Assembly: GCA_965197405.1 (NCBI GenBank)
Contig: OZ240206.1
Location: 3,275,096 to 3,339,095 of the forward strand
Length of the DNA: 64,000 bases
Source of the DNA: Dehalococcoidia bacterium
Lineage (GTDB): Bacteria; Chloroflexota; Dehalococcoidia; Lucifugimonadales; JAGWBF01
Direction: 5' to 3'
This document shows positions 5,642 to 61,438 of the stretch, piece by piece; within the stretch, counting starts at the first letter, position 1, and the number at the start of each line of letters is the position of its first letter. Position numbers and translations under genes: made by a program. The notes beneath the pieces are model-generated. The model was not told the DNA's origin and ran no database searches. It worked only from the letters and a program-made list of their open reading frames with translations.

Positions 5642-5737
5642 TAGAGGCAGCGGCCGACAGCCGTTCCTTGACAATGGCCCCCTGGGTGAGTCATGATACT
5701 GAGTAAGACTCGGTAATTACAGGCAATGGAGGACAGC

Positions 5738-7390
5738 ATGAAGAAGCATCTACAGCCCCTAACGCCGGCGGCCCTCTACGCCAGGGTGTCCAGCGACCGG
5801 CAGGACGTGGACCTGTCCGTGTCCGCCCAGCTACGGGCGCTCAAGGAATACGCCAGGGCCAACGACTACTCCGTGGCCCGCGAGTACGTGGACGAGGCCG
5901 AGAGCGGCCGCGTCGCCGACAGGCCCCAGTTCAGGGAGATGATCGAGGAGGGCGGCAAGCCGAAGGCCCCCTTCGACGTGATCCTCGTATGGAAATTCAG
6001 CCGCTTCACCCGCAAGCGCGAGCACGCCGTAGCCTTCAAGTCCCAGCTGCGGCGCAAGGGCATCCGGGTGGTGTCCATCACCGAGCAGGCCGAGGACAAC
6101 GCCACCGGCAGGCTGCTTGAGGGAATCATCGAGAGCGTGGACGAATATTACAGCGAGAATTTGGCGCAGGAGGTCGTCCGGGGGATGAGGGAGGCCGCTT
6201 CCAGGGGCTTCTTCCTCGGCTCCAACGCCCCCTTCGGCTACAGGAAGATCAAGGTCAGCGACGGGGCGAAGGAGCGCCCCACCCTTGAGGTTGACCCGGC
6301 CACAGCCCCCGTGGTGCGGGAGCTATTCGAGAAGTCCCTGCGGGGCAGCGGCCTCAAGGAGCTATGCAAGGAGCTGAACGACCAGGGCATCACCAACAGG
6401 GGCAAGCGCTGGTACAAGGGAACGCTCCACTACGTGCTGCGAAACGAGGCGTACACCGGCACCGCCGTATGGGGCAAGAGCAGCAAGGGCCAGGAAGCCG
6501 CCGACCCTGTGCGTGTTGAGGGAGCGTGGCCCGCGCTGGTGTCGAGAGAGCTGTTCGAGGACGTGCAGCAGGCGATGAGCGAGCGCGCCCCGAAGGTGCA
6601 GAGGCCCGGTAGAGTTGGGAGCAAGTTCCTGCTGAGCGGGTTGCTCAAGTGCGGGGTGTGCGGCAGGCCCTACTCGGCCCAGGGAGCCAAGAGCGGCCAG
6701 TTCGCCTACTACATCTGCGGGACCCTGTTCAGGGAGGGAGCGGGGACGTGCAGCGCCCGCTACCTGAACGCCCCGAAGCTGGAGACGTTCGTGGTGGAGA
6801 AGATCAGGGAGCGTATCCTCAACGAGGAGACCATCGTGGCCCTCGTGACGCTGGTGGCCGAGGAGATCGACGCGATGGCCGGCGAGCTGTCCGGCAGGCT
6901 GAAGGTCGTCGAGGCGGAGCTATCCGACGTGAGGAAGCGTCTTGAGAAGCTCTACGAGGCCATTGAGACGAGCGAGTTGACCCTGGAGGTCCTGTCGCCC
7001 CGCATCATGTCTCTGAGGCACCGTGAGGAGCAGCTGGAGGCTGCGAGAGAGGACGCCGAGACCCAGATTGAGCAGAGGAGAGTGGAGCTGCCCAACACCG
7101 AGGAGGTAGCGCGGTACGTGGCTGACTTCCGGGACTTCCTGAAGGATGGGACGATCCCCGAGCGGAAGGCGCTCATCCGCAACTTCGTTGAGGGCATCAA
7201 GGTGACTGGTGACGAGGCTACGCTGACGTACACGGTCCCCATGCCGAGCGACGGAGCGATCTCGGAATCGGCCTCGGTTCTTGATTTCGTCAAGTCCAGC
7301 CCACCACCGCTTACGGTAGATACCGCCATCTTCGAGATGTCGCTCGGCAGCCTGTCGGCGCACCGAGGTCTGTCGATTCCTGTAGTGTGA
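5738..7390 (+). CDS. Large serine recombinase (rec1)
   Basis: The resolvase catalytic N-terminus reads AALYARVSSDRQDVDLSVSAQ. A recombinase domain follows, then a zinc ribbon (CGVCGRPY...YYICG...C) and a long coiled coil. The start is taken at ATG 5738, just after GGAGGA. It is paralogous to 33937..35619. Confidence 0.9.
   Translation: MKKHLQPLTPAALYARVSSDRQDVDLSVSAQLRALKEYARANDYSVAREYVDEAESGRVADRPQFREMIEEGGKPKAPFDVILVWKFSRFTRKREHAVAFKSQLRRKGIRVVSITEQAEDNATGRLLEGIIESVDEYYSENLAQEVVRGMREAASRGFFLGSNAPFGYRKIKVSDGAKERPTLEVDPATAPVVRELFEKSLRGSGLKELCKELNDQGITNRGKRWYKGTLHYVLRNEAYTGTAVWGKSSKGQEAADPVRVEGAWPALVSRELFEDVQQAMSERAPKVQRPGRVGSKFLLSGLLKCGVCGRPYSAQGAKSGQFAYYICGTLFREGAGTCSARYLNAPKLETFVVEKIRERILNEETIVALVTLVAEEIDAMAGELSGRLKVVEAELSDVRKRLEKLYEAIETSELTLEVLSPRIMSLRHREEQLEAAREDAETQIEQRRVELPNTEEVARYVADFRDFLKDGTIPERKALIRNFVEGIKVTGDEATLTYTVPMPSDGAISESASVLDFVKSSPPPLTVDTAIFEMSLGSLSAHRGLSIPVV
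7296..7330 (+). other. att-like core inside the rec1 3' end
   Basis: CCACCACCGCTTACGGTAGATACC aligns codon for codon with rec2 (CCACCAAACTTGACGGTAGACAGA) and rec3 (GGACTTCCGTTTACGGAAGATACC). Similarity between the three genes stops just downstream. Confidence 0.45.
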
Positions 7391-7432: not shown

Positions 7433-9808
7433 CTACGCCCCCTCCCCCTTCTCCATCCGGTAGCCGACGCGAGGCTCAGTGAGAATGTATGTGGGGTTGT
7501 TGGCGTCGTCGCCCAGCTTGCGGCGGAGCTGCTTGGCGGCGGTGCGCACCCGCCGCGAGTCGCCCGACCTCCGCAGGCCCCAGACCCGTCGCAGCAGCCG
7601 GTCGTAGGTCAACACGCGACCGGCGTTGACCGAAAGCTCGAAGAGCAGTCCGTACTCGATGGCGGTCAGCCGCACGGGACGCCCGGCCAGTGTCACGCGA
7701 CGCTCGGCGTAGTCGACGGCCAGCTCCCCCAGCACGAAGGGTTCCGACGGCTCGGCCCATTCGGGCGCTTCCCGCTTGCGCAGGGCCGCCTTGATCCTGG
7801 CCACAAGCTCCATCGGCGAGAAGGGCTTGACCACGTAATCGTCGGCCCCATTCGCGAAGGCCCTGGCGATGGTCTCTTCCTGGCCGTAGGCTGACAGGAA
7901 GATAACCGGAACGTCGGCCATGTCGAGGATGCCCCGCATCAGCTCGATGCCGTCGGTCCCCGGCAGCATCAGGTCCAGCAGCACCAGGTGGGGGTCGTTC
8001 GCCTCCACCAGGCTGAGCGCCTCCTCCGGGTCTCCGGTCAGGACCGGGGCGTAGCCCGCATTCGTGAGCGCGTCCCGGACGTGCCTGAGCGTCTGCGGGT
8101 CGTCGTCCACCGCGAGGATGCGTTCCCGTTCCCTCTCCGACCGCCCGGAGCGCACCGGGAGATTGGCGGCCCCGATACCGGCGTCCTGGGCCACCGGAAT
8201 GGTGAAGGTGAACCGCGCCCCCAGGCCCGGCCCGTCGCTCTCGGCCCATATCCGGCCCCCGTGGGCCTCCACTATCCCCTTGCAGATGGCGAGGCCCAGG
8301 CCGGACCCCGCGATGTCCCGTCCCCGGTCCTCGCCGTCGATGCGGGAGAACTTCCGAAACAGGTGCGGCAGCCGCTCGGCGGCGATCCCTCTGCCCTCGT
8401 CCGTGACCGAGACGGCCACGTGGTAGCCCTCCCGCACGGCGGACACCCCTATGGCCGACGCCTCGTGGGAGTGCCGGGCCGCGTTGGAGAGCAGGTTGTT
8501 CAGCACCTGGATGATGCGCCTCCCATCCGCCATGACCAGTGGCAACTCCGGCGAGAGGTCGATGCGGAGGTTGTTCCTGCCCCCTCCGCTCTGGAACCTG
8601 CTCCTGGCCTCGTCCACCAGGCTCGCCACCTCCGCCGGCGCGGGGGCGACCGGCAGCTCGCCCGTCTCGATGCGCGCCACGTCCAGCAGGTCGCCGATCA
8701 GGTCGCGCATGTAGTCGGCCTGCTCGCCGATGATGCGGAAGAACTGGAGCATCTCGGCGGGGTCCAGGTCGGACGCCGCCTCCGTCAGCGTGGCGGCGGA
8801 GCCCTTGATGGCGGCCAGCGGCGTCCTCAACTCGTGGCTCACCATGCCCAGGAACTCGGCCCGCAGCCGCTCCAGCTCCTCCAGCGGCGTCATGTCCTGT
8901 AGGGTGACGACCACTGAAACGACCTCGCCCCCCTCCGAGCGGATGGGCGTGGCGTTGACCAGGGTGGTGACGCTCCCCCCGTCGGGGACCTCGATGACGA
9001 TCTCCTCGGCGCGCACCGTCTCGCCCGTGCTCAGCGCCTGGGCCAGAGGGAACTCCTCCAGGGAGACCTCCCGGCCGTCGGCCCGCCGGAAGGTCAGCAT
9101 GTCGAGGAGCTGCTCCGCAGAGCCATCGGGCATGTGCAGGCCGCTGACGATCCTCCTGGCCTCCCGGTTGACCGACGTCACGCCGCCCGTCTTCGCGTCG
9201 AACACCAGGACGCCCACCGGCGAGGTGTCGATCAGAGTCTCCATGTCGGCCCTGGCCCGCTGCTCGTCGCGGTGCCTGCGGGCGTTGGCGATGACCAGCG
9301 CCGCCTGGGAGGCGAACATCACCAGGGTCTCCTCGTCTTCGGGGGTGAACTCCAGATCCTTCTCGCCCACGTAGAAGGCCCCGACGCTCTCCCCAAGGTG
9401 GCGGATGGGCGCGGCAAGAAAGGGCAGCGGGGAGCTCACCGCCATCGGCGGGCGGAACTCGGGCAGGCCCAACTCCCTGACGTAGCTGTGGAAGTCCCGC
9501 AGCCGCAGCGGTTCACTGATGCTGCTCAGGTACTCGAAGAACAGCATCCCGTTGGGAAATTCGGCGAACCGCCGGCTCTCCTCGGGAGTCAGCCCGGAAT
9601 AGAGGAAGTCCTGTACCTGTCCCGATTCGTTTAGGAGGGTGATGACGCCGTAGCGCGCCCCGGTCAGGGAGCAGGCTGAGTCCAGCACCCCCTGGAGCAC
9701 CGTGTCGAAGTCGAGGCTCTCGTTGATGCGCAGGCTGGCCTGGCTGAGGCGGGCCAGCCGGTCCCGCAGCTCCGCTATCTCCCGCTGAGGCTCGTCTGCC
9801 TGTTCCAT
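7433..9808 (-). CDS. Hybrid sensor histidine kinase fused to a complete OmpR-type response regulator (GAF-PAS-HisKA-HATPase-REC-wHTH)
   Basis: H-box SHELRTPLAAI. N/G boxes NLLSNAARHS, DEGRGI and GSGLGLAI. The receiver reads ILAVDDDPQ...LVLLDLMLPG...VVKPF. The winged helix reads LTAIEYGLLFEL...LRRKLGDD...ILTEPRVGYRM. The start is taken at ATG 9808, behind GAGGGGGGAA. Confidence 0.85.
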   Translation of the reverse strand: MEQADEPQREIAELRDRLARLSQASLRINESLDFDTVLQGVLDSACSLTGARYGVITLLNESGQVQDFLYSGLTPEESRRFAEFPNGMLFFEYLSSISEPLRLRDFHSYVRELGLPEFRPPMAVSSPLPFLAAPIRHLGESVGAFYVGEKDLEFTPEDEETLVMFASQAALVIANARRHRDEQRARADMETLIDTSPVGVLVFDAKTGGVTSVNREARRIVSGLHMPDGSAEQLLDMLTFRRADGREVSLEEFPLAQALSTGETVRAEEIVIEVPDGGSVTTLVNATPIRSEGGEVVSVVVTLQDMTPLEELERLRAEFLGMVSHELRTPLAAIKGSAATLTEAASDLDPAEMLQFFRIIGEQADYMRDLIGDLLDVARIETGELPVAPAPAEVASLVDEARSRFQSGGGRNNLRIDLSPELPLVMADGRRIIQVLNNLLSNAARHSHEASAIGVSAVREGYHVAVSVTDEGRGIAAERLPHLFRKFSRIDGEDRGRDIAGSGLGLAICKGIVEAHGGRIWAESDGPGLGARFTFTIPVAQDAGIGAANLPVRSGRSERERERILAVDDDPQTLRHVRDALTNAGYAPVLTGDPEEALSLVEANDPHLVLLDLMLPGTDGIELMRGILDMADVPVIFLSAYGQEETIARAFANGADDYVVKPFSPMELVARIKAALRKREAPEWAEPSEPFVLGELAVDYAERRVTLAGRPVRLTAIEYGLLFELSVNAGRVLTYDRLLRRVWGLRRSGDSRRVRTAAKQLRRKLGDDANNPTYILTEPRVGYRMEKGEGA

Positions 9809-10121
9809 TTCCCCCCTCGAACCGGGCTGCCGACGGCCATGAGCCGCCGCCGCGCCGGATGCGGGATTCGGGACGCGAACCGCCCGGCCAGCCCCAATTA
9901 TAGCTGGCCCGGGCAAAACTCACAACAGATTCGGTTGGAAAAGTCTTGACTCTCACAGATACCTCACAGACATTTTGGTAAAATGCGGTGCATGGCTGCC
10001 CATTTTTCGGGAGATATTCACTTGGCACTCGACAGGCCGATAGACGGAGTGGAGAAAGTGGCCGCACCGGCCGCGTTCGAGACTGCCTTCCGTTGCCTAA
10101 CTAGCACAGACGTTCACCCCC

Positions 10122-23700: not shown

Positions 23701-23959
23701 CGGACCGTCGCGTCCCACGGCCCTCACCCCTTGTTCCAACCCCAAGGCCGCTCCGCGTCGGTGGACGTCGTTGGCGGCGGTCCCGTAGGGGGCCGAGGAA
23801 AGGCCAAGCCGCGAGGGGACGGCCCGGCGCGGCGTCCCGCCGGTGGAGACGGATTCGAGTCCGGGCCGCAGGCCGCAGCCTGCGCCATCGAGGGCCGCCG
23901 TCCGCGCAACGAGGGACCCGCCCGGTAGAGAGAACGCCAGGACATGCAGGAGGAGCGTC

Positions 23960-25111
23960 ATGAACGAGGAGCATGACGGGATGGACCAGGGGAATCCATC
24001 GGAAGAAGAGTACCAGAGGTTCCGCAGGATGATGGACGGCATGGGCCGCGAGGGCCTTCGCCGGATGGTCGAGCATCTGACGGAGAGGATCGAGGCGAAC
24101 CCCCGCGACGCCGAAGCCCTGTCCGCGAGGGGGCTGGCGTACAGCGAGCTGGGGGAGCACCGCCAAGCCGTCGAGGACTACGGCAGGATCATCGCCCTGG
24201 ACCCCAGCAACGCGGGAGCCCACCTCGGCAGGGCTCGCGCCTACTCCGCTATGGAGGAACACCGCCAGGCGGTGGAGGACTACGACGCCGCCATCCGCCT
24301 GGCCCCCGGCGACGCCGTGGCGCACTACAGCCGGGGGGCGTGCAAGGCGGAGCTGGGCGACCTGGCCGGAGCGATGAGCGACTTCGACGTGGCCGTCACC
24401 ATGGCCCCCGGCGACGCCGACGCCCACTACAACCGGGGATTGACCCAGGTGGCGATGGGCAAGCGCCACCGGGCGGTGAAGGACCTGAGCAGGGCCATAG
24501 ATTTGAATCCCAAACTCGCCGACGCCCACTACCACAGGGGCATGGCATACCGCGACATGGGCCGGATGGACAGGGCGCTGAGGGACTTCGGCGCCGCCAT
24601 CGGGCTCGAAGAGAGGTACGGCCTCGCCTTCTACGCCAGGGGGATCACCAACGTCAACCTGGGAGCGCACGAGGCCGCGCTGGGCGACTTCGACGCCGTG
24701 CTGGGGCTCGACCCCGACAACGCCTCTGCGCTCCGGGGCAGGGGAGTCGCCCTGGGCAACCTGGGCCGCTACGACGAGGCGGTCGGGGACTTCGACCGGT
24801 CCCTGGAGCTGGACCCCGGCAACGCCGAGGCCCTCGCGGCCCGGGGGCTGGCCCACGCCAGCCTGGAGCGGCACGAGCTGGCCATAGAGGACTACAGCAG
24901 GATCCTGGACATCGACCCCCGGAACAGGGACGTCCTCTACAGCCGGGGGATCGCCCGCATGTACGCGGCCCGGTTCGAGAGCGCCATCGAGGACTTCGAG
25001 GCCATCCTCGGCATCGAGCCGGGGCACGCCGCGGCGCGGGGGGCGAGGGAGTTGGCCCGCGAGGCGCTGGAGATGCAGGGAGGCGCGGGCCAGGGGCAGG
25101 CGGCGCGGTAG
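23960..25111 (+). CDS. Tetratricopeptide (TPR) repeat protein
   Basis: About ten consecutive 34-aa repeats of the form A..YSRG.AY..LG....A..D...AI.L.P..A.A. The start is taken at ATG 23960, behind AGGAGGAG. Confidence 0.85.
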   Translation: MNEEHDGMDQGNPSEEEYQRFRRMMDGMGREGLRRMVEHLTERIEANPRDAEALSARGLAYSELGEHRQAVEDYGRIIALDPSNAGAHLGRARAYSAMEEHRQAVEDYDAAIRLAPGDAVAHYSRGACKAELGDLAGAMSDFDVAVTMAPGDADAHYNRGLTQVAMGKRHRAVKDLSRAIDLNPKLADAHYHRGMAYRDMGRMDRALRDFGAAIGLEERYGLAFYARGITNVNLGAHEAALGDFDAVLGLDPDNASALRGRGVALGNLGRYDEAVGDFDRSLELDPGNAEALAARGLAHASLERHELAIEDYSRILDIDPRNRDVLYSRGIARMYAARFESAIEDFEAILGIEPGHAAARGARELAREALEMQGGAGQGQAAR

Positions 25112-26873: not shown

Positions 26874-26993
26874 TCCCTCCCGGCACCGGCGTACCTTGCG
26901 TCCACCAATAATCTACTCCTCATTACCCCTCATGTCTCCGCTGCCAAGCCCATGCCTTCATCATTTCAGCCGCAAAGGGAATTATGAGACAGG
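25274..26993 (-). mobile_element. IS1182-family insertion sequence (ends inferred)
   Basis: The imperfect terminal inverted repeats are CCTGTCCCACAAACCGG (25274-25290) and GGGAATTATGAGACAGG (26977-26993, reverse complement CCTGTCTCATAATTCCC). The element is about 1.72 kb and contains ORF 25134..26873. Confidence 0.55.
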
Positions 26994-26997
26994 CTCT

Positions 26998-27030
26998 GAC
27001 GGGCCCGGCGCAGTACCGCCGGGCCGTCGC
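26998..27030 (-). terminator. GC-rich hairpin just downstream of the 4xHTH gene
   Basis: GACGGGCCCGGCG-CAGTA-CCGCCGGGCCGTC lies 11 nt beyond the stop at 27041. It directly abuts the inferred IS1182 end. Confidence 0.4.
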
Positions 27031-30268: not shown

Positions 30269-30351
30269 GGCTCTTTTCTCCCTCTGCAAACTCCGCTTGA
30301 GTCTCCGGTCAGCCACTGGCCAGCCCTTTTCCCGCTCTCAGGCCACGGTTT

Positions 30352-30590
30352 TCGGGGACGTCATGCACCCCCACTTCAATCGCATTTTCCGGGGCCTAAT
30401 GTCATTGGGAAGCCGCTCCCACGGTCCCGCCGATGTCATTCCCCACGTTTGGCGATGTCATTGCCGTCCGGAACGCACTCTTTCTGAAAGTGTTCACTGG
30501 TTACGTCCTGTAGGGGGGTGATTTACCCCTGTTCCAGCTACGAAACCACGACTCAGGCCGCTCTGCTACCAAACTGAAACTCCTGTACAC
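30352..30590 (+). repeat. M module plus one ~100-nt unit, upstream of the regulator gene
   Basis: 30352-30507 matches 1545-1700. The unit at 30490-30590 carries GTGTTCAC, TCCTGTAGGGG, the hairpin AGGGG..CCCCT, CAGCTACGAAAC and CTCCTGTACAC. Confidence 0.75.
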
Positions 30591-31020
30591 CCCCAATACT
30601 GCACGAAAGGGGCGGAAAAAAAGAGGGTCTATAACCCCCCGCATCCCTGCGCAGAGCCACAGGGGAACCGCCCATAGCACCCCGCATCCTTGCGCAGAGC
30701 TACCAGGGGTCTTATTTCCCGTTTGATTTGTTCACACTTTTTTGCGACTGACGCGGTCCGGTGAACCGCAGCACACCGCAGGGAGGTGAATGAGTTGGCG
30801 CGGAGACCATCGACCAATCGTCGGTCGGCGAAGTGGGGATCGCCGTCCCACTCCACCGAGCATCGAGGGAAGGTGCGGCGTGAGCAGCCCGTCCCGGCCC
30901 GCAAAAGTGCAACTGCCAGCTATGGCCTTTGCAACCCCGCCCCAACCCCAGCCGCCTACATAAACGCAACTCTCAGCTACGGGACCTGCATACGCACGCC
31001 GGAACGTACCCGCAAGTCAA

Positions 31021-31120: not shown

Positions 31121-31542
31121 CCCCAACGGCATCGCCAACGGGGGTATTCGCCCCAGGTCTTACAGGGGCGCTCACGTGAGCGCCCTCATGGGTAGTTATG
31201 CCCAACGTCTCGACCGCTCACACTGGACGGCAGGCGCCCGGCCCATGAGACGCCCAGAAGCGGGATAAGCGGGATGAGAAGCGATAGCGGAAGGAATCCA
31301 CAGGCCAATCGCCGGGCGGCGGCGAGGCGGGAATCGCCAACGCGCTCCGACGAGCATCGGCAGACCCTCAGGGAGGCGAACGAGTTGATGTTGAAATCCG
31401 CGATCCGGTCCAGGCGCAACGCTGAACGCTGCTTCGGCGGGCGCTCGAGACGGCTCTGCTGCCTGAAGGAGGCCGGCGGCCCGTCACAGACCTGAAACGA
31501 GAGGCCAGCAGCCCAACCGATTCGCCGCTGCGACTGCGCAAC

Positions 31543-31767
31543 ATGAGAGATCCCAGAAGAAACAACGGACGAAAGAGGCCCGGAGGACAGGAGCTCGAAG
31601 ACGCCCTGGAGACCTCCATGCCGTCCTACACGCCTGAACATCGCAGGGCGGTCCTGAAGGGGCTGCGCATCCTGGCCCGCGTCGCCATCCGCTCCTACAT
31701 GGAGGAGAAGGCGGAGGCATCGTCCCGGCCCGAAGCCGTGGAGGACGGCGGCGAAGAGGAAGAATAG
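31543..31767 (+). CDS. Hypothetical small protein with an acidic tail (weak call)
   Basis: This is an ORF only. The MPSYTPEHRRAVLKGLRILARVAIRSYMEEK segment looks protein-like, but the N-terminal part is R/G-rich, so the true start may be internal (near 31618). Confidence 0.3.
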   Translation: MRDPRRNNGRKRPGGQELEDALETSMPSYTPEHRRAVLKGLRILARVAIRSYMEEKAEASSRPEAVEDGGEEEE

Positions 31768-33441: not shown

Positions 33442-33653
33442 CTATGAGATCGCTCAAAACAACCCTATATGAGCCCTGGAGTTCCCCGACGCTATTGTAC
33501 GTTGAGTTGACTCCACAGACAGGGCTGATTTCTCGCGACTGAGTCCTAGCAGCGTCCTCAACGCCCAGAGCTACCAGGGTCCCCCCGGGCCAGCACTGGG
33601 CATCAGGTCTGTCCCTTTCCATGAGGCAGTCGGCGGTATGGGAAGCGACTCCC

Positions 33654-33704
33654 TTGACAACGGAGGTCCGATTCGTCCATGATAAGGGTAAGACATATTG
33701 TTAC
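33654..33704 (+). promoter_or_regulatory. Candidate promoter and GGTAAGAC box upstream of the RHH-rec2 operon
   Basis: TTGACA (33654-33659), an 18-nt spacer, then CATGAT/TGATAAG. GGTAAGACATATTGTTAC (33687-33704) shares the GGTAAGAC 8-mer with 3131-3138. Confidence 0.3.
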
Positions 33705-33722
33705 ATCAAGAGACAAAAAAAC

Positions 33723-33944
33723 ATGCCGAAGAAACGAAGGACCGTCACCTTCTCTCTGCCGCCGGAGATGGACGACCAGCTCAGGCAGGCGGTCAGGGAG
33801 GACGGCCGCACGCTGAGCGAGCTTCTGCGCGAGGCGTTCCGCCTCTACCTGGAGGAGAGGGAGTGGCGCAGACAGGAGAGGACGCAGATGCGGCGCTCGC
33901 GCCGAACCAGCAGGAAGCAACAAGGAGGAGCAACAGATGAGTGA
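33723..33944 (+). CDS. Ribbon-helix-helix protein coupled to the recombinase gene
   Basis: MPKKRRTVTFSLPPEMDDQLRQAVREDGRTLSELLREAFRLYL parallels the antitoxin at 3160..3417. Its stop overlaps the rec2 start (ATGAGTGA). No toxin gene follows. Confidence 0.75.
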   Translation: MPKKRRTVTFSLPPEMDDQLRQAVREDGRTLSELLREAFRLYLEEREWRRQERTQMRRSRRTSRKQQGGATDE

Positions 33945-35619
33945 ACGAAACGACCGCACGCCGGCGGCCCTCTACGCCAGGGTCTCCAGCGACCGCCAGG
34001 ACGTGGACCTGTCCGTGTCCGCACAGATGAGGGCGCTCAGGGACTACGCCGACAAGAACGACTACGAGGTCGTCCGGGAGTACGTGGACGAGGCGGAGAG
34101 CGGACGCGTGATGAACCGCCCGGAGTTCCAGAAGATGCTGGACGAGGCCAAGAGGACCGAGGCGCCCTTCGAGGAGATATTGGTCTGGAAGTTCTCCCGC
34201 TTCACCCGCAAGCGCGAGCACGCCGTCATTCTGAAGTCCATGCTCAGGCGCAAGGGCCTCCGCGTCGTCTCCATCACCGAGCAGGCCGAGGACAACCCCA
34301 CGGGCAGGCTCCTGGAAGGCATCATCGAGACCGTGGACGAGTTCTACAGCGAGAATTTGGCGATGGAGGTCTTGCGCGGAATGCGCGAGGCCGCATCCCG
34401 TGGCTTCTGGGTCGCTCCGATGGCCCCCTACGGCTACAGGAAGGTCAAGGTGCAGGACGGACCCAAGGAGAGGCCCGCCCTGGAGCCGGACCCCGAAACG
34501 AACGGCATCGTCAAGCGCATCTTCGACTTGGCCGAGACTCGCAAGGGGATGATGAAGATCGTCCGCATCCTCAACGACGAGGGCATCTCCAGCCCCAGGG
34601 GTAAGCTCTGGAACAAGCCCACCGTCCACAACATCCTCAGAAACGAGGCGTACCTGGGCACCCTCGTCTGGGGCAACAACGCCAAGGACGGGGCCGAGCC
34701 GGTGCGGGTGGACAAGGCGTTCCCCGCCACCGTCGCCAAGGCCCAGTTCGACCGGGTGAACAGGATACTGCGCTCCCGCGCCCCCAAGGTCTCCCACCCC
34801 CGCAGAGTCGGAAGCACCTTCCTGCTGAGCGGACTGGTCAAGTGCTACAGGTGCAAGAGGGCGCTATCGGGCCGGTACTCCAGCAGGGGCACGTTCCCCT
34901 ACTACGTCTGCCACTCCTTCGTAAAGCGCGCGCCCGGGTCCTGCGACTCGCCCAGGGTTGACGCACGGCAGTTCGAAGAGCTGGTCGTCGGCCTGATTCG
35001 CTCCAACATCCTGACCGAGGGCAACATTCGGAGCCTGGTCAATGTCGTGGACGAGCAGATGGACGACGTGGCCGGCGACGAGCGCAAGCGGCTGGAGACC
35101 ATCGAGAAGGAGCTTGCCGACGTGAGGGGCAGGCTCGACCGGCTCTACGACCTCGTGGAGACGACGACCGAGTTCAACATGGCCGACTTCGCCCACCGCA
35201 TCCGAGACCACAAGGAGCGTCAGGAGCGCCTTGAGTCCGCCGCTGAGGGGGCGAGGGCAATCCTGGCCCAGCGCAGGGCGGTCCTCGACGACGTGAAGAC
35301 GATCACGGCCTACGCCAAGGACATGAGCAGGTTCCTGCAAAAGAGCGAGCTGACGGAGCGCAGGGCCTTCATCGAGACCTTCGTGAAGGAGATCGAGCTT
35401 CTGCCCGACAACGCCGTCGTCCGCTACACCGTTCCGATGCCCGACGATAGCTTGATTCCGGGAAAAAAAGTCCAGGAGATACCGCTGAACGGCTCGGTGG
35501 TATCTTCCGTAAACGGAAGTCCACCAAACTTGACGGTAGACAGAACCGAGCCGTTCAACGCCATCTCCTCGGCGTCTCTCCCCGGTATGGGGCTGTCGTC
35601 GGGCATCGGAATCGTGTAG
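33937..35619 (+). CDS. Large serine recombinase (rec2)
   Basis: The N-terminus reads AALYARVSSDRQDVDLSVSAQMRAL. A recombinase domain, a zinc ribbon (CYRCKR...YYVCHS...C) and a coiled coil follow. AAGGAGGAG lies upstream. The last ~65 codons are antisense to rec3. Confidence 0.9.
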   Translation: MSERNDRTPAALYARVSSDRQDVDLSVSAQMRALRDYADKNDYEVVREYVDEAESGRVMNRPEFQKMLDEAKRTEAPFEEILVWKFSRFTRKREHAVILKSMLRRKGLRVVSITEQAEDNPTGRLLEGIIETVDEFYSENLAMEVLRGMREAASRGFWVAPMAPYGYRKVKVQDGPKERPALEPDPETNGIVKRIFDLAETRKGMMKIVRILNDEGISSPRGKLWNKPTVHNILRNEAYLGTLVWGNNAKDGAEPVRVDKAFPATVAKAQFDRVNRILRSRAPKVSHPRRVGSTFLLSGLVKCYRCKRALSGRYSSRGTFPYYVCHSFVKRAPGSCDSPRVDARQFEELVVGLIRSNILTEGNIRSLVNVVDEQMDDVAGDERKRLETIEKELADVRGRLDRLYDLVETTTEFNMADFAHRIRDHKERQERLESAAEGARAILAQRRAVLDDVKTITAYAKDMSRFLQKSELTERRAFIETFVKEIELLPDNAVVRYTVPMPDDSLIPGKKVQEIPLNGSVVSSVNGSPPNLTVDRTEPFNAISSASLPGMGLSSGIGIV

Positions 35620-36375
35620 CGCACCACGGCGTTGTCGGGCGTGACGACGATCTCCTTCACGAAGCTCTCGATGAAGGCCCTTCGCTCGGTCAACTCGCTC
35701 TCGTTCAGGAACATGCTCATGTCCAAGGCGTAGGCCGTGATGGTCTCCACGTCGTCCAGGACCTCTCTGCGCTGTGAAAGCATCGCCCTGGCCTCCTCCG
35801 CCGTGGCCTCAAGCCTCTCCCGGTGCTCTCTGATGCGGGGCTTGAAGTCGTCGATGTCCAGGTCGGTGGTCTCCGCCAAGTCGTAGAGCCGTCCCAGCCT
35901 TCGCTTCACGTCCACCAGCTCCGCCTCTATCGTCTCCAGCTTCTGCCGCTGCTCCTTGGCCACCCCGTCCATCTCCTCGTCCACCATCTTCACCAACGCC
36001 CTGATGTTGGACTCGGTGAGCACGTTCTCCCGAATCTTCCCTACGACCTTCTCCTCGAAGCGCCGGGCGTTGAGCCTGGGGGCGTCGCAGGTGCCACTGC
36101 CCCGCTTGAGGAGGGACTGGCAGACGTAGTAGGCGAACTTCCCGCTCTTGGCGTCTTGGCCGGAGAGCGCCCGGTTGCACGCCTTGCACCTGACAAGCCC
36201 GCTGAGAAGATAGGTGCTGCCCACTCTACGAGGATGGCTCTTCCTGGGTGCGCGGGAGCGCAGCTTGCGGTTCACCCTGCGGAACCGGGACTTGGAGACG
36301 ATGGCGGGGAATGCCTTCTCCACCCGCACCGGGTCCGCCTTGTCCTTGGCGTCGACGCCCCAGACCAGGATATGG
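35424..36375 (-). pseudogene. 5'-truncated large serine recombinase (rec3), lacking the catalytic domain
   Basis: It aligns with rec2 from LVWG..AKD..PVRV(E/D)KAFPA to the C-terminus. Homology begins abruptly near 36373. No resolvase domain is present. The GTG at 36329 on the track is an ORF-finder start only. Confidence 0.8.
35487..35556. other. 70-bp imperfect palindrome with an inner core; putative serine-recombinase crossover site
   Basis: GAACGGCTCGGT (35487-35498) pairs with ACCGAGCCGTTC (35545-35556). The inner core at 35496-35525 is GGTGG-TAT-CTTCCG-TAAA-CGGAAG-T-CCACC. Confidence 0.6.
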
Positions 36376-36543: not shown

Positions 36544-36750
36544 TTAGGCCCGTACCCGACGCAGCAAGTACCAGCCTCCCCCTATCAGCGCCGGGACTCC
36601 AATGACTAGCAGCACGATTGCCCATACAGGGAACCCGCCGCCCTCCTCTTCGGGGGTCACAGGTGTCGGAGTAGTTGCAACCGTTGGGGTTGGCGCAGGT
36701 GGCACTGTGGTAGCCGTCGGCGCGACTGTTGGAGTAGGTAGAATCTCCGT
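36544..36750 (-). pseudogene. Orphan 3' fragment encoding a Pro/Thr linker, a TM helix and a basic tail (surface-protein C-terminus)
   Basis: My own translation of the third minus frame gives ...PTPTVAPTATTVPPAPTPTVATTPTPVTPEEEGGGFPVWAIVLLVIGVPALIGGGWYLLRRVRA*. No start codon gives 60 aa or more, so it is absent from the ORF track. Confidence 0.5.
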
Positions 36751-37148
36751 AGGCCCACGCCCTCGGCAGCCATGCCCTGGGCGATGAGCTTGGACTGAAG
36801 GGCCTGTATGTGGGAGGGTGCGAGCCGCGCCACTTGCAGGTGGCCGAGGTGGGGTGTGATGTGCAGGCGTATGATGCCCTCGTAGCGCTCCTTGGTGCGC
36901 TGGCGGCGGTTGGGGGCGATGATCTCATGGAGCCACTGGTCGAGCCAGTCGCGGAGGAGTATCTTGCCGGTGGGCAGGGTGAGGCCCTTGTCGAGGGTGG
37001 AGAGGAGTTCCCGGAGCTTGCGCTGAGCCTGGGCCTTGGTGCCGCGTACGGTGAGGTACTTGCGCTTGCGCTTGCCGAGGCCGTCCTGCCCGGTGTCGAG
37101 GGTTATCTCCCAGGAGCCGTCGCTGCGCCGCCGGAGGCTGCCTTTCAT
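36750..37148 (-). pseudogene. N-terminal fragment of a tyrosine (phage-type) integrase
   Basis: MKGSLRRRSDGSWEITLDTGQDGLGKRKRKYLTVRGTKAQAQRKL is arm-binding-like. RERYEGIIRLHITPHLGHLQVARLAPSHIQALQ is the SAM-like N-domain. No catalytic domain follows. The breakpoint is approximate. Confidence 0.65.
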
Positions 37149-38255: not shown

Positions 38256-38636
38256 ATGTCTCATTCCTATCCCAGCGACATCTGCCGGGAGCAATTTGCC
38301 CGGATTCTTCCCACGTTGGAGTCGGCCCGCCGACGGACCAAGCCCCGCACCGTGGACTTGTACGACGTTTTCTGCGGGGTGCTCTACCTCCTGAAAAGCG
38401 GGTGCCAGTGGCGGATGCTCCCTGCGGACTTCCCCGATTGGCGCACTTGCTACAAGTATTTCCGGCAATGGAGTGAGCGGCCCGACCCGGAGAAAGAGTC
38501 CATTCTGGAGCAGGTCTTAAAAACAATTGGTTGGAGCGGCCCGACGGAGCAATGGTCGAAAAGAGCAGACCAGCTTCTGCATCGTGGACGCCCAGAGCGT
38601 CAAGAACACGGACAGCGCCGAGAACAAGGGCTATGA
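38256..38636 (+). CDS. IS5-family transposase, OrfA (DUF4096-like N-terminal part)
   Basis: LYDVFCGVLYLLKSGCQWRMLPADFPDWRTCYKYFRQW is the typical N-terminal module of this family. It overlaps OrfB. Confidence 0.8.
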   Translation: MSHSYPSDICREQFARILPTLESARRRTKPRTVDLYDVFCGVLYLLKSGCQWRMLPADFPDWRTCYKYFRQWSERPDPEKESILEQVLKTIGWSGPTEQWSKRADQLLHRGRPERQEHGQRREQGL

Positions 38637-39048
38637 CTCGGGCAAGAAGGTGTCCGGGATTAAGCGTCACATCGCGGTGGACACACAGGGGCTGCCCCAT
38701 GCGATTCATGTGACCACCGCCAACGTTACGGACCGGGCTGGGGCTTTGGCGATGTTTGACCAACGCCGGGCCGACCTGAGCCGGGTGCAGCAAGTGCTGG
38801 TCGATGGGGGTTACACCGGGAAGCCCTTTGCCGCAGCGGTGCAGAGCCTGTTGGGAGCCTCGGTGGAAGTGGTGAAACGCAATGAACTGCACATTTTCGT
38901 GGTGCTGGCGCAGCGATGGGTGGTGGAGCGGTCTTTTGCCTGGCTGGAGAAGTGCCGCCGACTCTGGAAGAACTGCGAGAGAAAGCTCAATACCAGTCTG
39001 CAAATGGTGGTTCTCGCCTTCCCGGTGCTAATCCTGAAAAGATTGTAA
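38527..39048 (+). CDS. IS5-family transposase, OrfB (DDE domain), in the +1 frame relative to OrfA
   Basis: The sequence reads FCIVDAQSVKNTDSAENKGYDSGKKVSGIKRHIAVDTQGLP...VLVDGGYTG...VVERSFAWLEKCRRLWKNCE. The frame opens just after the A-run TTAAAAACA (38517-38525). Confidence 0.8.
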   Translation: MVGAARRSNGRKEQTSFCIVDAQSVKNTDSAENKGYDSGKKVSGIKRHIAVDTQGLPHAIHVTTANVTDRAGALAMFDQRRADLSRVQQVLVDGGYTGKPFAAAVQSLLGASVEVVKRNELHIFVVLAQRWVVERSFAWLEKCRRLWKNCERKLNTSLQMVVLAFPVLILKRL

Positions 39049-39772: not shown

Positions 39773-41875
39773 CTATCGGGAACGGGTGACGAATACCCCC
39801 ACGGCTCCGAGCGCCGCCACTATGGCGATGACCAGTGCGACTATGGGCAGGGCTCCGCCGCCGCCAGCCTCACCCTGGGCGCCGGGAGTTCCTGCCTCAC
39901 CCTGGAGACCCTGAATGCCCTGGGGGCCGACCTCACCCTGCGGGCCTTGCGGGCCAGGTTCGCTCCGCGGGCCGCTCGGCCCTTCCTTACCCTGTGGCCC
40001 CTGAAGACCCTGTTCTCCCTGGATACCCGGCTCTCCCCGCTGGCCCTGTGGCCCTTGCATACCCTGGGTATCCGGCGGGCTGGGCGGGGCGGGCGGTCCC
40101 TGCTCGCCCTGGAGACCGCGCGGTCCCTGTTTACCCTGTGGCCCCTGGAGACCTTGCTCACCCTGGAGACCCTGTTCTCCCTGTGGCCCCTGAAGGCCCT
40201 GTTCGCCTTGCTGTCCCTGAAGACCCTGCTCACCCTGGAGGCCTTGCTCGCCCTGGAGACCCTGCTCTCCTTGGGGGCCCTGTTCTCCTTGGAGGCCCTG
40301 TTCTCCCCGGGATCCCGTATCGCCCTGCTCTCCCTGGCCCCCCCTGCCGCCGCCGCTGCCGCGTGGCCCGGCCGGACCCTGTGGGCCACGCGCGCCTGTG
40401 GGGGCCTGAACCCTGACGGTGGTGGAGGGGCTGATGGGGGTCGAGATTCCCTGGTCGTTCTTGAGAACGCCGGACAATGTGCCGGTTGCCGTCGTGGACG
40501 GAGCGGTCACCACGTAGGTGAACCTTGTTTCATCCAGTAGCGTGAAGGTCACCTTTTGACCGTCCATTGCCACGCTTATATCAGATGGCTTGACGGAATC
40601 TGTCTTGTAGCTGAAATCGCTGGGTAGCGTCTCCACCACCTGGCCGAATCTGCCGTAGTTGGCAACCCGTATGGTCACCGTCAGGTCCGCGCCATAGTCC
40701 ACCTGTGACGCGGACAAGCTGCGGGTGGCCGTGGGCACCGGGACGTCCACCGTTACACTGGACTCTCTGATGGTGTGCATGTTGCCTTGGTCATCGCTGA
40801 GGGTTCCCGTGAAGGGATGGCTGCCCCCGGTGCTGGAGGCCGTGACCTTGTAGCTGAAAGTCGTATCACCCAGGAGGGTGAATGCGACCTCCTGGCCGTC
40901 CACCGCTGCCCGTATATTGGAGGGGTCAACGGAGCGTGCCACGTAGCTGAACCCGTCGGGGAGGGTTTCCGTCACCTTCCCGAAGCTGCCGTAGTTGCTG
41001 GCCCGGATGGTTACTGTAATCTCGCCCCCAGGGGCAACCGAGGGCGGGGAGAAGGACCTGGTGGCGCCGGGTTCCGTCTGTCCAGCCGTGACGGTCACGT
41101 TGGAAGCGCTTATTGAACGGATGTCTCCCGTGTCGTCGTTCACTGTGCCACGGAATGTATGACTGCCCGCCGTGTCCGAGGCGGTCACCTTGTAGCTGAA
41201 GCTCAGGTTCGCGCCCAGAAGGGTGAAGCGGACATCCTGTCCACTCGTGGTGGTCCTGATGTTGGATGGGTTGGTGGAGTTTGGCACGTAGCTGAACCCG
41301 TCGGGGAGGGTTTCCGTCACCTTCCCGAAGCTGCCGTAGTTGCTGGCCCGGATGGTTACTGTAATCTCGCCCCCAGGGGCAACCGAGGGTGGGGAGAAGG
41401 ACCTGGTGGCGCCGGGTTCCGTCTGTCCAGCCGTGACGGTCACGTTGGAAGCCCTTATTGAACGGATGTCTCCCGTGTCGTCGTTCACTGTGCCACGGAA
41501 TGTATGACTGCCCGCCGTGTCCGAGGCGGTCACCTTGTAGCTGAAGCTCAGGTTCGCGCCCAGAAGGGTGAAGCGGACATCCTGTCCACTCGTGGTGGTC
41601 CTGATGTTGGACGGGTTGGTGGAGTTTGGCACGTAGCTGAACCCGCCGGGGAGGGTCTCCACGACCCTCCCGAAGCTGCCGTAGTTGCTGGCCCGGATGG
41701 TTACTGTAATCTCGCCCCCAGGGGCAACCGAGGGCGGGGAGAAGGACCTAGTGGCGCCGTGGCCGCTGGCGCCGGCCTGGCCCGAAGGCCAGACCGACAG
41801 TCCGATTACCAGGAGCAGTCCCACTATCACGGTTGCCAGCCAGAGCGGTGGCAATGTCGTTATGTTTCTGACCAA
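39773..41875 (-). CDS. Secreted, membrane-anchored protein with five ~115-aa beta-sandwich repeats and a long collagen-like Gly-X-Y region
   Basis: The N-terminal signal/TM reads [23 protein letters not shown]. The repeat reads [42 protein letters not shown]...SYKVTAS..., five times. About 55 G-X-Y triplets follow ([16 protein letters not shown]...). The C-terminal anchor is a TM helix plus a basic tail ([26 protein letters not shown]). Confidence 0.85.
39850..40400 (-). repeat. Collagen-like triplet-repeat coding region
   Basis: A 9/18-bp periodic CCCTGnAGnCC pattern on the plus strand translates to GEQGLQGxQG repeats on the minus strand. Confidence 0.85.
40440..41815 (-). repeat. Tandem 345-bp coding repeats; the three promoter-proximal copies are nearly identical
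   Basis: 41123-41467 and 41468-41812 are almost base-identical. 40930-41122 repeats the same sequence. Two further copies (40440-40930) are diverged. Confidence 0.85.
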
Positions 41876-41919: not shown

Positions 41920-44900
41920 TTAGCTTGCTAGTAGACCTTCAAAGAAGAGGTCAATGAGGTCGAGCACCTGCTCGCGGGTGATGCTGGCGTCAGGGGCGAA
42001 GAAGTCGTCAATGGCGTCCAGCACCTCTTCCCTGTCTATCTTGTCGTTCTTGTTGTTGTCGTAGAGGTCCTTCACGGTCTCCGGCTCCGGTTCGTCGGTG
42101 ACGGTGATGGTGACATCAATGGAGTCGCTCGCCCTATCTGGGTCTGTGGCCGTGACCGTCACCATATAGGTGGGCTTGGTCTCGTAGTCCAACGCCACGG
42201 CGGTCATCAGTTGGCCGGTCTCATCGTCTATGGCGAAGTCAGCCCCATCCGTCCCGCCGAGGGTGTAGGTCAGGGTATCGCCCGTGTCGGCGTCGGCGGC
42301 CGCTACCGGTGCGCCGATGTCCATGCCCGCCGCCGTGTTCTCGGCGATATCGCGGGCGCCAAGTTCGGTAGACGGGAAGGCAGGCGCGTCATTCACGTCG
42401 GTGACGTTGATGGTCACGTCGATGGAGTCGGTGCCGCCGTTGCCGTCGTTGGCGTTCACCGTGACCATGTAGGTCATCTTGGTCTCGTAATCCAGGGCCG
42501 CCTTCGTCCTCAGCTGGCCGGTCGTGCTGTCTATGGCGAAGGAAGCCGCGCCAGTGCCGCTAAGGGTGTAGGTCAGGGTGTCGGCGTCGTCGGCGTCCGT
42601 GGCAGCTATGGCTGCGCCGATGAGTCTACCTGCTGGCTGGTTCTCGACTATACTGCGGGTCGCCGTCTCAGCAGGGAACATGGGCATGTTCTCGTTCACG
42701 TTGGTGACCATGACGGTGACGGTAAGGGAGCCACTCTCCTCATCTGGGTCTGTAGCTGTAACCATGACCGTGTAGGTCGCCTTGGCCTCGTAGTCGGGGG
42801 GACTGTTGAACATGAGCACGCCGCCTTCGATGGTGAAATCGCCCATGTCGGCTCCCGACAGGCTCCAGGTAATCATGTCGTTCTCAGGGTCGGTGGCCGT
42901 GTAGGTGGCCACAGGGCCCGTGCCGTTCTCCTCGTAATCTGGTGTGGCGTCTCCGCTCACCATTGGCGCTTCGTTCACGCCGGTGACGGTTATGGTCAGG
43001 TCGATGGTGGCCATTTCGCCGCCGCCGGTAGCCTTCACCGTGACCATGTAAACGTTGTCGGTGTTGGCGTCCGCCGGGGCCTCAAAGTTGGGCGGGCTAC
43101 TGAACTCGAGCGTCCCGCCTGTGATGTTGAAGGCCCCCCCGTCGTCGCCCTCCACGGACCAAGTGGCCGTGTCTGGACCGGTCGTGGTGTAAGTGGCCAC
43201 GGGGCCCGTGCCGTTCTCCATGTAATCGTCGGGGCTGGCCGGGCCGGAGATCGTACCGAGTTCGGGCACGTCGGTGACGGTTATGGTCACGTCGATGGTG
43301 TCCGTTTCGCCGCCGCCGGTAGCCTTCACCGTGACCATGTACTCGTTGTCGGTGTTGGCGTCCGCCGGGTCCTCGAAGTTGGGCGGGCTACTGAACTCGA
43401 GCATCCCGCCGCTGCTGATGCTGAAGGCACGTCTGTCGTCGCCCTCCACGGACCAAGTGGCCGTGTCTGGACCGGTCGTGGTGTAGGTGGCCACGGGGCC
43501 CGTGCCGTTCTCCATGTAATCGTCGGGGCTGGCCGTGCCGGAGATCGTACCGAGTTCGGGCACGTCGGTCACTTCCACCGTTACATCGAGGGTGCCGATA
43601 TCTTCGGAGTCGCTGGGGGTCGTGACCTTCAGGGTTACCTCGTAGGTGTTGGAGTTGTCATTCTCGCCGCCCATTGGGTTCTCGTAGTCGGGGGCGGTCT
43701 TGAACTTGAGCGTCCGGCCCGCGTCCGTGCGTTCGAGCTTGAAGTGGCCGGCGTCGGGGCCTTCCAGGTTCCCCCACACTGCCGTGTCTTCGTTGTCGCC
43801 GGAAACGGTGTAGGTGCCCACGGTGGTGTCTTCCTGGTTCTCGGCGTAATCGGAGACTCTGGTGGCGTCACCAGATATGGACAGGTTCGCCACCGGTATT
43901 GGCGTCTCGTTTACGTCGTTGACGCGTATGTTGGCGTCTATACCGTCCGAGTTGCCCATTGGCATGGCGGAGTCGGTAGCCGTAACTCGCAGCCCTTCGA
44001 TTATCCGGTGTTGCCCGCCGTCGGGGCCCATTTCCTCCAACTCATCCAGGGCCTCATAGTTCAACCTGCTCCGGGTCAGAATCTCGCCGGAGGACGGGAC
44101 TATCTGGAACAGATTGTCGTAGGTCCCGGCATCGAGGGTATAGGTCAGCTTCTTGCCGTCGGCGCTGCCCGTGTCCTCGGGGTCCGTTGCCGTCACCGTG
44201 CCAAGGACGCTCCTGTTTATCGAGATACTTGGCAGGGTGTCGTCGCTGTTCTCAGCTATCAGCCGTGTGGAGGCGTCATCGGCGAAGCTGGGGGCTTCGT
44301 CCACGTCGTCCACCCTGATCCATATCACTCTGTCGTTCTTTTCGTCGTCTTCTGGATTGGGGTGATTGACCCCGCCGTGGGACCTCAGGTTGGCGAAGGC
44401 AACCCTCACCACGATCTTGTAGATGTTGTCGCCCTCTTCGTCGCCTGTGCCCCTGTCTTTCGGGTCCTCAAAGTTGGGCGCGTCGTGATCTTCGCCGGTG
44501 CCGATGGCGAACAGGAGCGTGGTATCGGATGTGTTGAACCGGGAGAACCGGAAATTGTCACACAGACCTTCGTTGGTCGCATCATAGTGACAGTCGATGC
44601 TTCCAGGGTTGTTCCTGTTGTGCGAATCAGGGGAGGTCTGTAGTTCCAAGCCCGGAGTAGCATCGGTTGTCAAAAGGGACCACTTCAAGCCGCCCAGGTT
44701 CGTTTTCTGCGTGTAGCTGTTATAGAGGGCGGCTATCTCCTTTGTGTTCTCATCGACCCGTATGCGTTGCTCCACCCCCTCTATCTCCGGCACGTCGAGC
44801 ACTTCAATGGTCACGGTAACCGTGTCCATCCGGCCGGCTGGGTCAGTGGCCGTGACCATAACCGTGTAGGTGCTCTTGGTCTCGAAGTCCAGTGCCATCT

Positions 44901-58737: not shown

Positions 58738-59051
58738 GGCGTCTATTGACGGCAACCCTTCTGGCCGGGGCTGCGCTGGCGACCACCGGCGCGGCCCCGC
58801 CCGAGGAGCAGGCCATGCTGGACGCCTTCGACCGGGTGTTGACTGCGATGGCCTACGCCGCCTCCGGACTCTGCCTCTTCGCCATCGTCTGGGCGGGCTT
58901 CGTCCTGATGGCCGAGGGAGCCGAGGAGCGGGGCGGCGGCAAGGCCAAGAGCGCCGTCGTGATGGCCGTCGTCGGCCTGGTGCTGGTCCTTCTGGCCAAG
59001 GCCGTCGCCGCGCTGCTGCGCAGCGGCCTCGTCCCGTTCCCCACCCCCTAG
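58734..59051 (+). CDS. VirB2/TrbC-like small membrane protein (pilin-like) 2
   Basis: The signal peptide is VRRLLTATLLAGAALATTGAA. Two helices follow (YAASGLCLFAIVWAGFVLM-AEGAEERGGGKAKS-AVVMAVVGLVLVLLAKAV). GTG 58734 overlaps the upstream TGA. ATG 58719 is the alternative start. Confidence 0.6.
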   Translation: MRRLLTATLLAGAALATTGAAPPEEQAMLDAFDRVLTAMAYAASGLCLFAIVWAGFVLMAEGAEERGGGKAKSAVVMAVVGLVLVLLAKAVAALLRSGLVPFPTP

Positions 59052-59070
59052 CGCAAAGGAGAAGACCGAG

Positions 59071-61311: not shown

Positions 61312-61438
61312 AACTGCCAACAGATACAGAACGCGAGACAGGAGGAAGCAACGGATGAACGATGGAGATAGACCAAGAGACACGGAAAGACGGTACTGCG
61401 AACCATGCCAAGACCCCAATAGAAGAAGGAGAACAAAG

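Follow-up and report, generated by a model that had tools for sequence, protein, structure and literature searches.

The 64,000-nucleotide stretch of contig OZ240206.1 from a Dehalococcoidia bacterium considered here (the window) contains two convergent genes of the large serine recombinase (LSR) type, rec2 on the forward strand and a 5'-truncated rec3 on the reverse strand, whose open reading frames (ORFs) overlap tail-to-tail by 196 bp. Comparative analysis suggests that this junction is likely to be a hybrid att site, formed when a serine recombinase joined two elements that are each mobile on their own and differ in polarity. That an att-type site lies within the 3' coding end of the recombinase, with two elements joined at it, had been proposed in an original prediction made from the letters of the window alone. 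This proposal is now borne out, as the homology breakpoints of about 40 related loci converge on one 6-bp core and the partner downstream of that core is swapped among close relatives.

The comparison set comprised 80 related loci (designated by numbers of the type L001), all from Dehalococcoidia/Chloroflexota genomes and many of them from complete long-read chromosomes, and, at the protein level, the 120 closest database proteins. Domains were identified using Pfam and tRNA genes using ARAGORN, the structure of rec2 was modeled with AlphaFold, and the strength of folds was expressed as a z score against shuffled sequences.

The att site at the recombinase 3' ends

Both rec2 and a further intact recombinase of the window, rec1, display the Resolvase (PF00239), Recombinase (PF07508) and Zn_ribbon_recom (PF13408) domains, all scoring above the Pfam cut-off. 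In rec3 the catalytic domain is missing and Zn_ribbon_recom alone is recovered; the protein corresponds to amino acids 243-525 of rec2 with 64.8% identity, and the homology can be followed to window position 36369, with an in-frame stop located directly upstream of the sequence LVWG. The nearest solved structures are those of the SPbeta and TP901-1 LSRs, and the AlphaFold model of rec2, albeit of modest confidence (predicted local distance difference test (pLDDT) 65.6, predicted template modeling score (pTM) 0.32), places two long helices (residues 361-409 and 415-469) where the coiled-coil of LSRs is expected. An exact look-up of the rec2 sequence recovered no database record.

The convergent coding sequences of rec2 and rec3 constitute an extended inverted repeat, of which the inner arms (35215-35513 and 35530-35828) are 80% complementary over 299 nt and the outer arms (34662-35165 and 35866-36369) 74% complementary over 504 nt. 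Its middle is occupied by the palindrome GAACGGCTCGGT...ACCGAGCCGTTC (35487-35556), which folds significantly better than shuffles (z = -4.5) and codes for related peptides on both strands, namely LNGSVVSSV...TEPF and LNGSVLSTV...TEPF. Each ORF terminates at a TAG that is the antisense of the CGC-TAC (R-Y) codons of its partner. The tail-to-tail overlap, the coding of related peptides by the same ~70 bp on both strands and the origin of the two stops had all been correctly recognized in the original prediction, the ORFs, the palindrome and both peptides being present as described there.

The boundaries of homology define the junction with precision. Similarity between the window and 19 loci of the rec2 clade stops at 35526-35535, and similarity on the rec3 side to more than 20 loci starts exactly at 35521; therefore, the core shared by both blocks is CCACCA. 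The closest relatives of rec3 (L024 with 93.5% identity, L036 with 92%, and L022 and L030 with 90%) all begin to match at 35521 and cease to do so abruptly at 36367-36371. Likewise, the 120 closest proteins are conserved up to the signature NGSV(L/V)S(T/S)V-x-x-GG or -PP, beyond which they diverge completely, even when they are 90-96% identical up to that point. Neither rec2 nor rec3 has a stop codon ahead of the core, and consequently each gene reads into whatever DNA is joined to it.

Alignment of 78 junctions anchored on the core CCACCA yielded the consensus GGTTC-N8-GTCAAG-N6-C/CACCA-N2-CTTGAC-N8-GAACC, in which the slash denotes the dyad axis between the first two Cs and each half-site spans 26 bp. 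The site in the window is a 52-bp dyad (35496-35547, axis 35521/35522) of the form GGTKS-N8-GTMAAS-N6-C/CACCA-N2-CTTGAC-N8-GAACC. The pattern GTMAAS-N6-CCACCA-N2-CTKGAC-N8-GAACC has a single match in the window, with 0 mismatches, as against 0 expected from 100 shuffles. The crossover dinucleotide is predicted to be the CC at 35521-35522, on the dyad axis. Column conservation over the last 360 nt, computed with the two polarity classes described below mixed, was uninformative.

The original prediction had placed the inner core of the site at a hairpin with a TAAA spacer (35496-35525), and in this respect it requires correction: the core is CCACCA at 35521-35526, and the hairpin is not concentric with the large dyad, the axis of which lies 11 bp to the right. 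Near-identical relatives carry GGTAGT where the window has GGAAGT, a one-base difference within the hairpin, and its fold, which is strong only in the window (z = -4.3), is not significant in L001 (z = -1.55). The hairpin can hence be ruled out as the crossover site. The coordinates of these and other features are collected in the table below.

Features of the window relevant to the recombinase junction
Feature	Position	Strand	Description
Shared core CCACCA	35521..35526	+	Sole bases common to both homology blocks; same sequence as the CC-A-CCA at which the targeted tRNAs end
Left 26-bp long (P-type) half-site	35496..35521	+	Last codons of rec2: GGTGG-TATCTTCC-GTAAAC-GGAAGT-C; invariant within the rec2 clade apart from A35517
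Right 26-bp long (P-type) half-site	35522..35547	+	Antisense of the last rec3 codons: CACCA-AA-CTTGAC-GGTAGACA-GAACC; exact match to the family pattern
rec2	33937..35619	+	Intact large serine recombinase ORF, 560 amino acids; family-conserved part up to 35526
rec2 read-through	codons from 35527	+	Antisense of rec3
rec3 ORF	35424..36329	-	301 amino acids
rec3 remnant	35424..36369	-	5'-truncated large serine recombinase; conserved part 35521-36369
rec3 read-through	35424-35520	-	Antisense of rec2
Extended inverted repeat	34662..36369	.	Two diverged convergent recombinase coding sequences, 74-80% complementary
Eccentric hairpin	35496..35525	+	GGTGG-TAT-CTTCCG-TAAA-CGGAAG-T-CCACC, centre 35510.5; specific to the rec2 clade; perfected here by a single T>A at 35517
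RHH_1 (CopG) gene	33621..33944	+	Overlaps the rec2 start; homologue directly upstream of the recombinase in 62/80 loci
Small ORF	31543..31767	+	74 amino acids, no Pfam match; within a conserved ~290-bp block (31472-31762); tblastn matches in 52/80 loci, ~0.8-1 kb upstream of the recombinase
rec1	5726..7390	+	Second intact recombinase of the family; 51.8% identical to rec2; reads the core in sense
rec1 site	7276-7332	+	Left arm 7276-7300, core CCACCA 7301-7306, degenerate right arm from 7307

Partners of the core in related loci

The tails of the closest proteins beyond the core fall into a small number of classes, namely antisense translations of tRNAs (GIRT.. and WTRT..), antisense translations of a recombinase (..TVDRTEPF..LSSGIGTV and a stop) and three short types. 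Tails of the antisense-recombinase kind, the occurrence of which in unrelated contexts would have spoken against a joining of elements, are encountered only where a convergent recombinase is present. At 18 of the 80 loci the opposite strand bears a tRNA gene (Ile-GAT, Val, Ala, Lys or Met), the CCA end of which lies 6 nt past the conserved V codon, and with two further junctions, at L079 and, involving tRNA-Ser, at L080, a total of 20 such cases was identified (all tRNAs rather than tmRNAs according to ARAGORN). Every targeted tRNA ends in CC-A-CCA. The arm supplied by the tRNA has the form GGTTC-N2-GTCCAG-N6-CCACCA, a 20-bp half-site with the inner motif at the same distance from the core as in the 26-bp form and with GGTTC, which belongs to the T-arm, 6 bp closer. 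The tRNA 3' end forms a shorter half-site that resembles an attB arm.

Another 23 of the 80 loci have a convergent recombinase at the core; this partner is a full-length gene at 19 loci and resembles rec1 at 17. The two members of every convergent pair differ in how they read the core, which is in sense for one (AGT/GGC-CCA-CCA, found in rec2 and rec1) and in antisense for the other (TGG-TGG, found in rec3). The combinations of partners vary: genes of the rec2 clade abut at least three different partners of the G-G type and at least five other right arms, and their right flanks are unrelated between genomes, while the closest relatives of rec3 abut either tRNA-Val or rec1-like genes. The exchange is most evident from a comparison of L040 with L051, which share 98.5% identity in the recombinase and 97-99% in the 7 kb that precede it. 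Directly after TGGTGG the identity amounts to 79.9%, the homology stops at the start codon of the partner, and beyond the partner gene the two loci are unrelated. The convergent partner in L011 (11602-12476) has lost its 5' part up to about residue 232, not far from the truncation point of rec3 (residue 243), and it is full length in the similar locus L013.

Several loci also document element ends and accretion at the core. L030 contains an 11-kb element that ends in a G-G-type (antisense-type) recombinase and is flanked by direct CCACCA repeats, one of which is a convergent junction and the other of which carries a non-coding long arm. Recombinase-free segments of 3-4 kb between direct cores, adjoining a recombinase gene, were detected in L010, L012 and L069. 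A different arrangement is seen in L046, L058 and L070 (and also in L063, L064 and L067-L069), where two recombinase genes stand in tandem ~0.5 kb apart; the clade of the upstream gene ends in a stop codon (..STRQ) just before the expected position of the core. In L073 a gene of this stop-before-core clade has a core immediately 3' of its stop codon.

The family is a large one, with at least 587 relatives confirmed by tblastn among the 597 pattern matches listed from a scan of GTDB species genomes. A scan of viral contigs recovered relatives at no more than 39% identity. Three of these LSRs from IMG/VR contigs (L084, L085 and L086; 38-39% identity), situated at predicted viral contig edges, read without a stop into antisense tRNA-Ser or tRNA-Glu, their cores being TGGCGG or TGGCGC. 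The habit of reading into tRNA genes is therefore not limited to the Dehalococcoidia family, and it suggests that these enzymes, too, target tRNA ends.

A proposed recombination mechanism, its rivals and known systems

These observations are consistent with a mechanism in which the last ~9 codons of the recombinase encode one half of a ~52-bp att site, with translation running past the crossover into the DNA joined on the other side. The genes fall into two classes by core polarity, those reading it in sense (S/G-P-P, typified by rec2 and rec1) and those reading it in antisense (G-G, typified by rec3). The antisense class adjoins tRNA genes, whose ...CC-A-CCA end supplies the shorter attB-like half-site, and an element of one polarity might recombine with the end site of an element of the opposite polarity, giving rise to convergent recombinase genes that share the 6-bp core. 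Each gene of such a pair would then read its partner in antisense until it meets the TAG opposite the R-Y codons of the latter, such that the antisense overlap would be a by-product of the missing stop codons. In the window, an intact rec2 element to the left of 35526 would abut a decayed rec3 remnant to the right of 35521, itself cut at 36369/36370. The anatomy of the site, its breakpoints, its recurrence and the swapping of partners are direct results of the comparison; the order of events and the lack of a function in the read-through tails are inferred from them. The peptide NGSV(L/V)S(T/S)V may be conserved on account of the DNA binding site that it encodes and not for the folding of the peptide.

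Certain points weigh against this picture. Both half-sites in the window are of the long, attP-like type, and crosses of attP with attP are not carried out by canonical phage serine integrases (PMC3783163). The model thus presupposes a relaxed, Ccr-like pairing of sites, which is hypothetical. CcrB is the best-scoring curated family for these recombinases (E = 7e-48 for rec1 and 4e-37 for rec2), yet their scores of 128-164 bits are far below the cut-off of 900 of the CcrB NCBIfam equivalog. The evidence is wholly comparative, with no excision or integration product observed. The window holds no tRNA gene, and no distal att site was found for the element of rec2 or for that of rec3, which is truncated. 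Nor could the left end of the rec2 element be placed: at none of the loci of the rec2 clade did pattern scans reveal a CCACCA with an arm in the 10 kb upstream.

Alternatively, the junction could be the intact attP of a single element bearing two convergent recombinases, a heteromeric pair akin to CcrA/CcrB in which each gene is coded across its own half-site and rec3 was truncated later. The 19 loci with two full-length convergent recombinases on one core, the long, attP-type form of both half-sites and the moderate correlation of partner divergence across loci (r = 0.62) all favor such a view. The same correlation, however, shows clear discordant cases, the two sides have independent sets of partners, and the homology of L040 and L051 falls off at the core and ends at the start codon of the partner. 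Moreover, the G-G-type element of L030 possesses its own distal end with a non-coding arm, and no outward-reading partner was found within 10 kb in any tRNA-adjacent element, so that a single two-recombinase element appears quite improbable. We regard as slightly less plausible still the idea that no second element was inserted and that the junction arose by site-specific inversion between two inverted att sites on one chromosome. Inverted sites do occur on one chromosome, as in the case of L073 and L044, which lie 19.5 kb apart (a recombinase adjoining a short arm, then a recombinase adjoining a tRNA); flipping the interval between them would yield a convergent pair together with a junction of tRNA and arm, and the region of the window is heavily rearranged, with insertion sequence (IS) elements and truncated genes. 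Against this, the reciprocal product, be it a tRNA joined to an arm or an inverted pair of arms, is absent from the window, and its two cores are direct and not inverted repeats.

The overlap might also have been selected for itself, either for the dual-coding C-terminal extensions that it provides or for a hairpin serving as a bidirectional terminator. The palindrome does fold well, two weak terminator-like matches occur on the minus strand, and the short alternative tails of relatives (e.g. one ending in TKSRTFTLRFRLAL and the stop) are conserved to the stop codon. Nevertheless, near-identical recombinases differ wholesale in their tails, and the 31-residue tail of rec2 lies within a region predicted to be disordered (pLDDT below 50 at residues 524-560). 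With no T-run after the main dyad, and with the dyad itself accounted for by a half-site pattern that is common to the tRNA junctions, this proposal is highly improbable. Hardly credible at all is an assembly error in which two copies of a recombinase were joined by fold-back or as a chimera, even though palindromic joins are known in long-read assemblies and the exact rec2 protein is without a record elsewhere. A fold-back is excluded by the divergence of the inverted-repeat arms, which are just 74-80% complementary, the join sits exactly on the 6-bp core of the family, and 23 independent assemblies, as well as about a third of the 120 closest proteins, show this architecture again at the very same nucleotide. 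A hybrid site left by crossover between two mobile elements hence remains the reading that we favor.

This architecture is strongly reminiscent of DsiB, the CcrB-like recombinase (~540 amino acids) of the ssrA islands of Dehalococcoides. The embedding of the site had been thought in the original prediction not to be described for the recombinase gene itself, and here it was mistaken: the 3' end of dsiB overlaps attL in every case, with the stop codon falling within the neighboring island or within ssrA, the encoded C-termini diverge from one another, and the islands accrete in tandem, some being integrase-free (McMurdie et al. 2011, BMC Genomics 12:287; PMC3146451). Literature on serine recombinases that target tRNA genes or overlap their att sites yielded this paper as the sole find. 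Both systems belong to the same bacterial class and feature, at the edge of an island, a CcrB-like LSR whose gene overlaps att at the 3' end and has its stop beyond the element boundary. Both target the 3' end of a tRNA-like RNA gene, and both show tandem accretion between core repeats with some recombinase-free segments (L030, L010, L012 and L069 in the present family). As judged by comparison of descriptions rather than sequences, several traits of the present family appear to be new relative to DsiB. It uses the CC-A-CCA end of ordinary tRNAs and a 6-bp core, whereas the target of DsiB is ssrA, where insertion takes place in the T-loop and the direct repeat measures 20 bp. Its accessory module consists of a small ORF and an RHH protein, in place of dsiA (a small serine recombinase), a recF-like gene, parB and mom. 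Finally, its two polarity classes, and the recurrent convergent pairs to which they would give rise, are not described for DsiB.

Other known systems provide partial parallels. The CcrA/CcrB recombinases of SCCmec similarly direct integration to the 3' end of a conserved gene, form arrays separated by core repeats and are relaxed in their choice of site pairs. They differ in that a ccrA-like neighbor is missing in the window and in that the att site of SCCmec is not inside ccrB. In SSV1-type archaeal integrases, which are tyrosine recombinases with tRNA targets, attP is again inside the gene of the recombinase, but integration splits int into two large parts, whereas members of the present family lose only a short tail. 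In the integration-dependent immunity of mycobacteriophages, a gene that contains attP also has its 3' end replaced on integration; there, the gene is that of the repressor and not of the recombinase, the enzyme is a tyrosine integrase, and the swap has a regulatory role as it removes a degradation tag. With the phage serine integrases (A118/LI, phiC31 and Bxb1) the family shares pseudo-palindromic sites and a non-palindromic central dinucleotide. The geometry is comparable too: the attP half-site of phages spans ~25 bp and attB is shorter, with the outer (zinc-ribbon) motif ~5 bp inward (Rutherford et al. 2013, PMC3783163), and in the present family the half-sites are of 26 and 20 bp with the outer motif shifted by 6 bp. 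Unlike in these phages, where attP is intergenic, the targets are protein-coding genes and crossing of two attP sites does not occur, junctions between two long half-sites are common in this family.

Element organization, surroundings and significance

Upstream of rec2 are encoded an RHH protein, a hypothetical protein, an HTH_17/DUF2283 protein, a PBECR2 nuclease and the small ORF. The RHH gene and the small ORF are the parts of this module that are conserved across loci, and their products are candidate regulators or directionality factors. Attempts to delimit the elements further were less rewarding. No solo arm was detected in the window by pattern scans, alignment with L003 and L006 revealed a common homology edge near 21760 without an att-like site there, and the conserved ~290-bp block at 31472 is not sharply delimited. 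Upstream of tRNA-adjacent recombinases, no direct repeat of the tRNA 3' end exceeded 12 nt; such short repeats are expected for serine recombinases, and distal ends are therefore not findable by means of tRNA-end repeats.

Separated by 28.2 kb, the cores at 7301 (rec1) and 35521 form a direct repeat. The junction of L022 corresponds to the left arm of rec1 followed by the right arm of rec3, matching them at 77 of the 80 positions that flank the core, with the rare spacer TCCAGC among the matches, and the closest relatives of rec1 are the convergent partners of the closest relatives of rec3. Taken together, these observations raise the tentative possibility that an ancestral rec1-rec3 pair may have been split by insertion of 7307-35520, a segment ending in rec2. 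Synteny of the flanks of the window with L022-type loci is weakly borne out, by matches that are short or repeated. A hybrid histidine-kinase/response-regulator gene (7433..9916, minus strand) ends 40 nt past rec1.

The cut in rec3 at 36369/36370 is adjoined by an N-terminal fragment of a tyrosine integrase (36657..37148, minus strand; Phage_int_SAM_3), and an IS5-family transposase, disrupted by a frameshift, lies nearby (38256..38636 and 38527..39048, plus strand). Two DDE transposase (IS) genes (22183-23508 and 25134-26873) are located inside the region common to L003, L006 and L019, and the second of these breaks the collinearity (gap 25275-27017). At the right of the window, the stretch 57562-63789 agrees in order and orientation with positions 1-6400 of L039, L051 and L056, upstream of their antisense-type recombinase; judging from this collinearity, the recombinase of another element of the family probably lies just past the right end. 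Positions 1505-1692 and 30351-30657 both match L020 (16414-16758) and resemble a dispersed repeat of ~200-300 nt. The window also encodes giant surface proteins of 3691 amino acids (10585-21660; fn3, cadherin-like and Calx-beta domains), 700 amino acids (39773-41875; Ig-like repeats and a collagen triple-helix tract) and 1829 amino acids (41920-47409; cadherin repeats). Along with a TPR protein (23843..25111) they constitute a set of eukaryote-like repeat proteins, of a kind reported for sponge symbionts; some of the related metagenome-assembled genomes belong to bins with the name RHO1.

It is conceivable, although we deem it unlikely, that the att site in which a resident recombinase gene ends acts as a landing pad that serially captures whole elements along with short recombinase-free cassettes bounded by the same arms, i.e. 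an integron-like accretion platform run by an LSR. The two polarity classes would let such arrays grow on either side, and the frequent intact convergent pairs, formed by a G-G-type and a rec1-like recombinase, could be heteromeric partners, each coded across its own half-site.

In more general terms, an overlapping pair of antisense ORFs is now explained as a mapped recombination junction, and the surrounding ~30 kb is marked as a zone of mobile-element accretion. The family lets one half of the att site be read straight from the last codons of the recombinase, with attB being the universal CC-A-CCA end of several tRNAs. It thereby offers many candidate pairs of recombinase and att site for the study of half-site recognition, of the geometry of attP versus attB and of polarity, and could provide parts for genome engineering.

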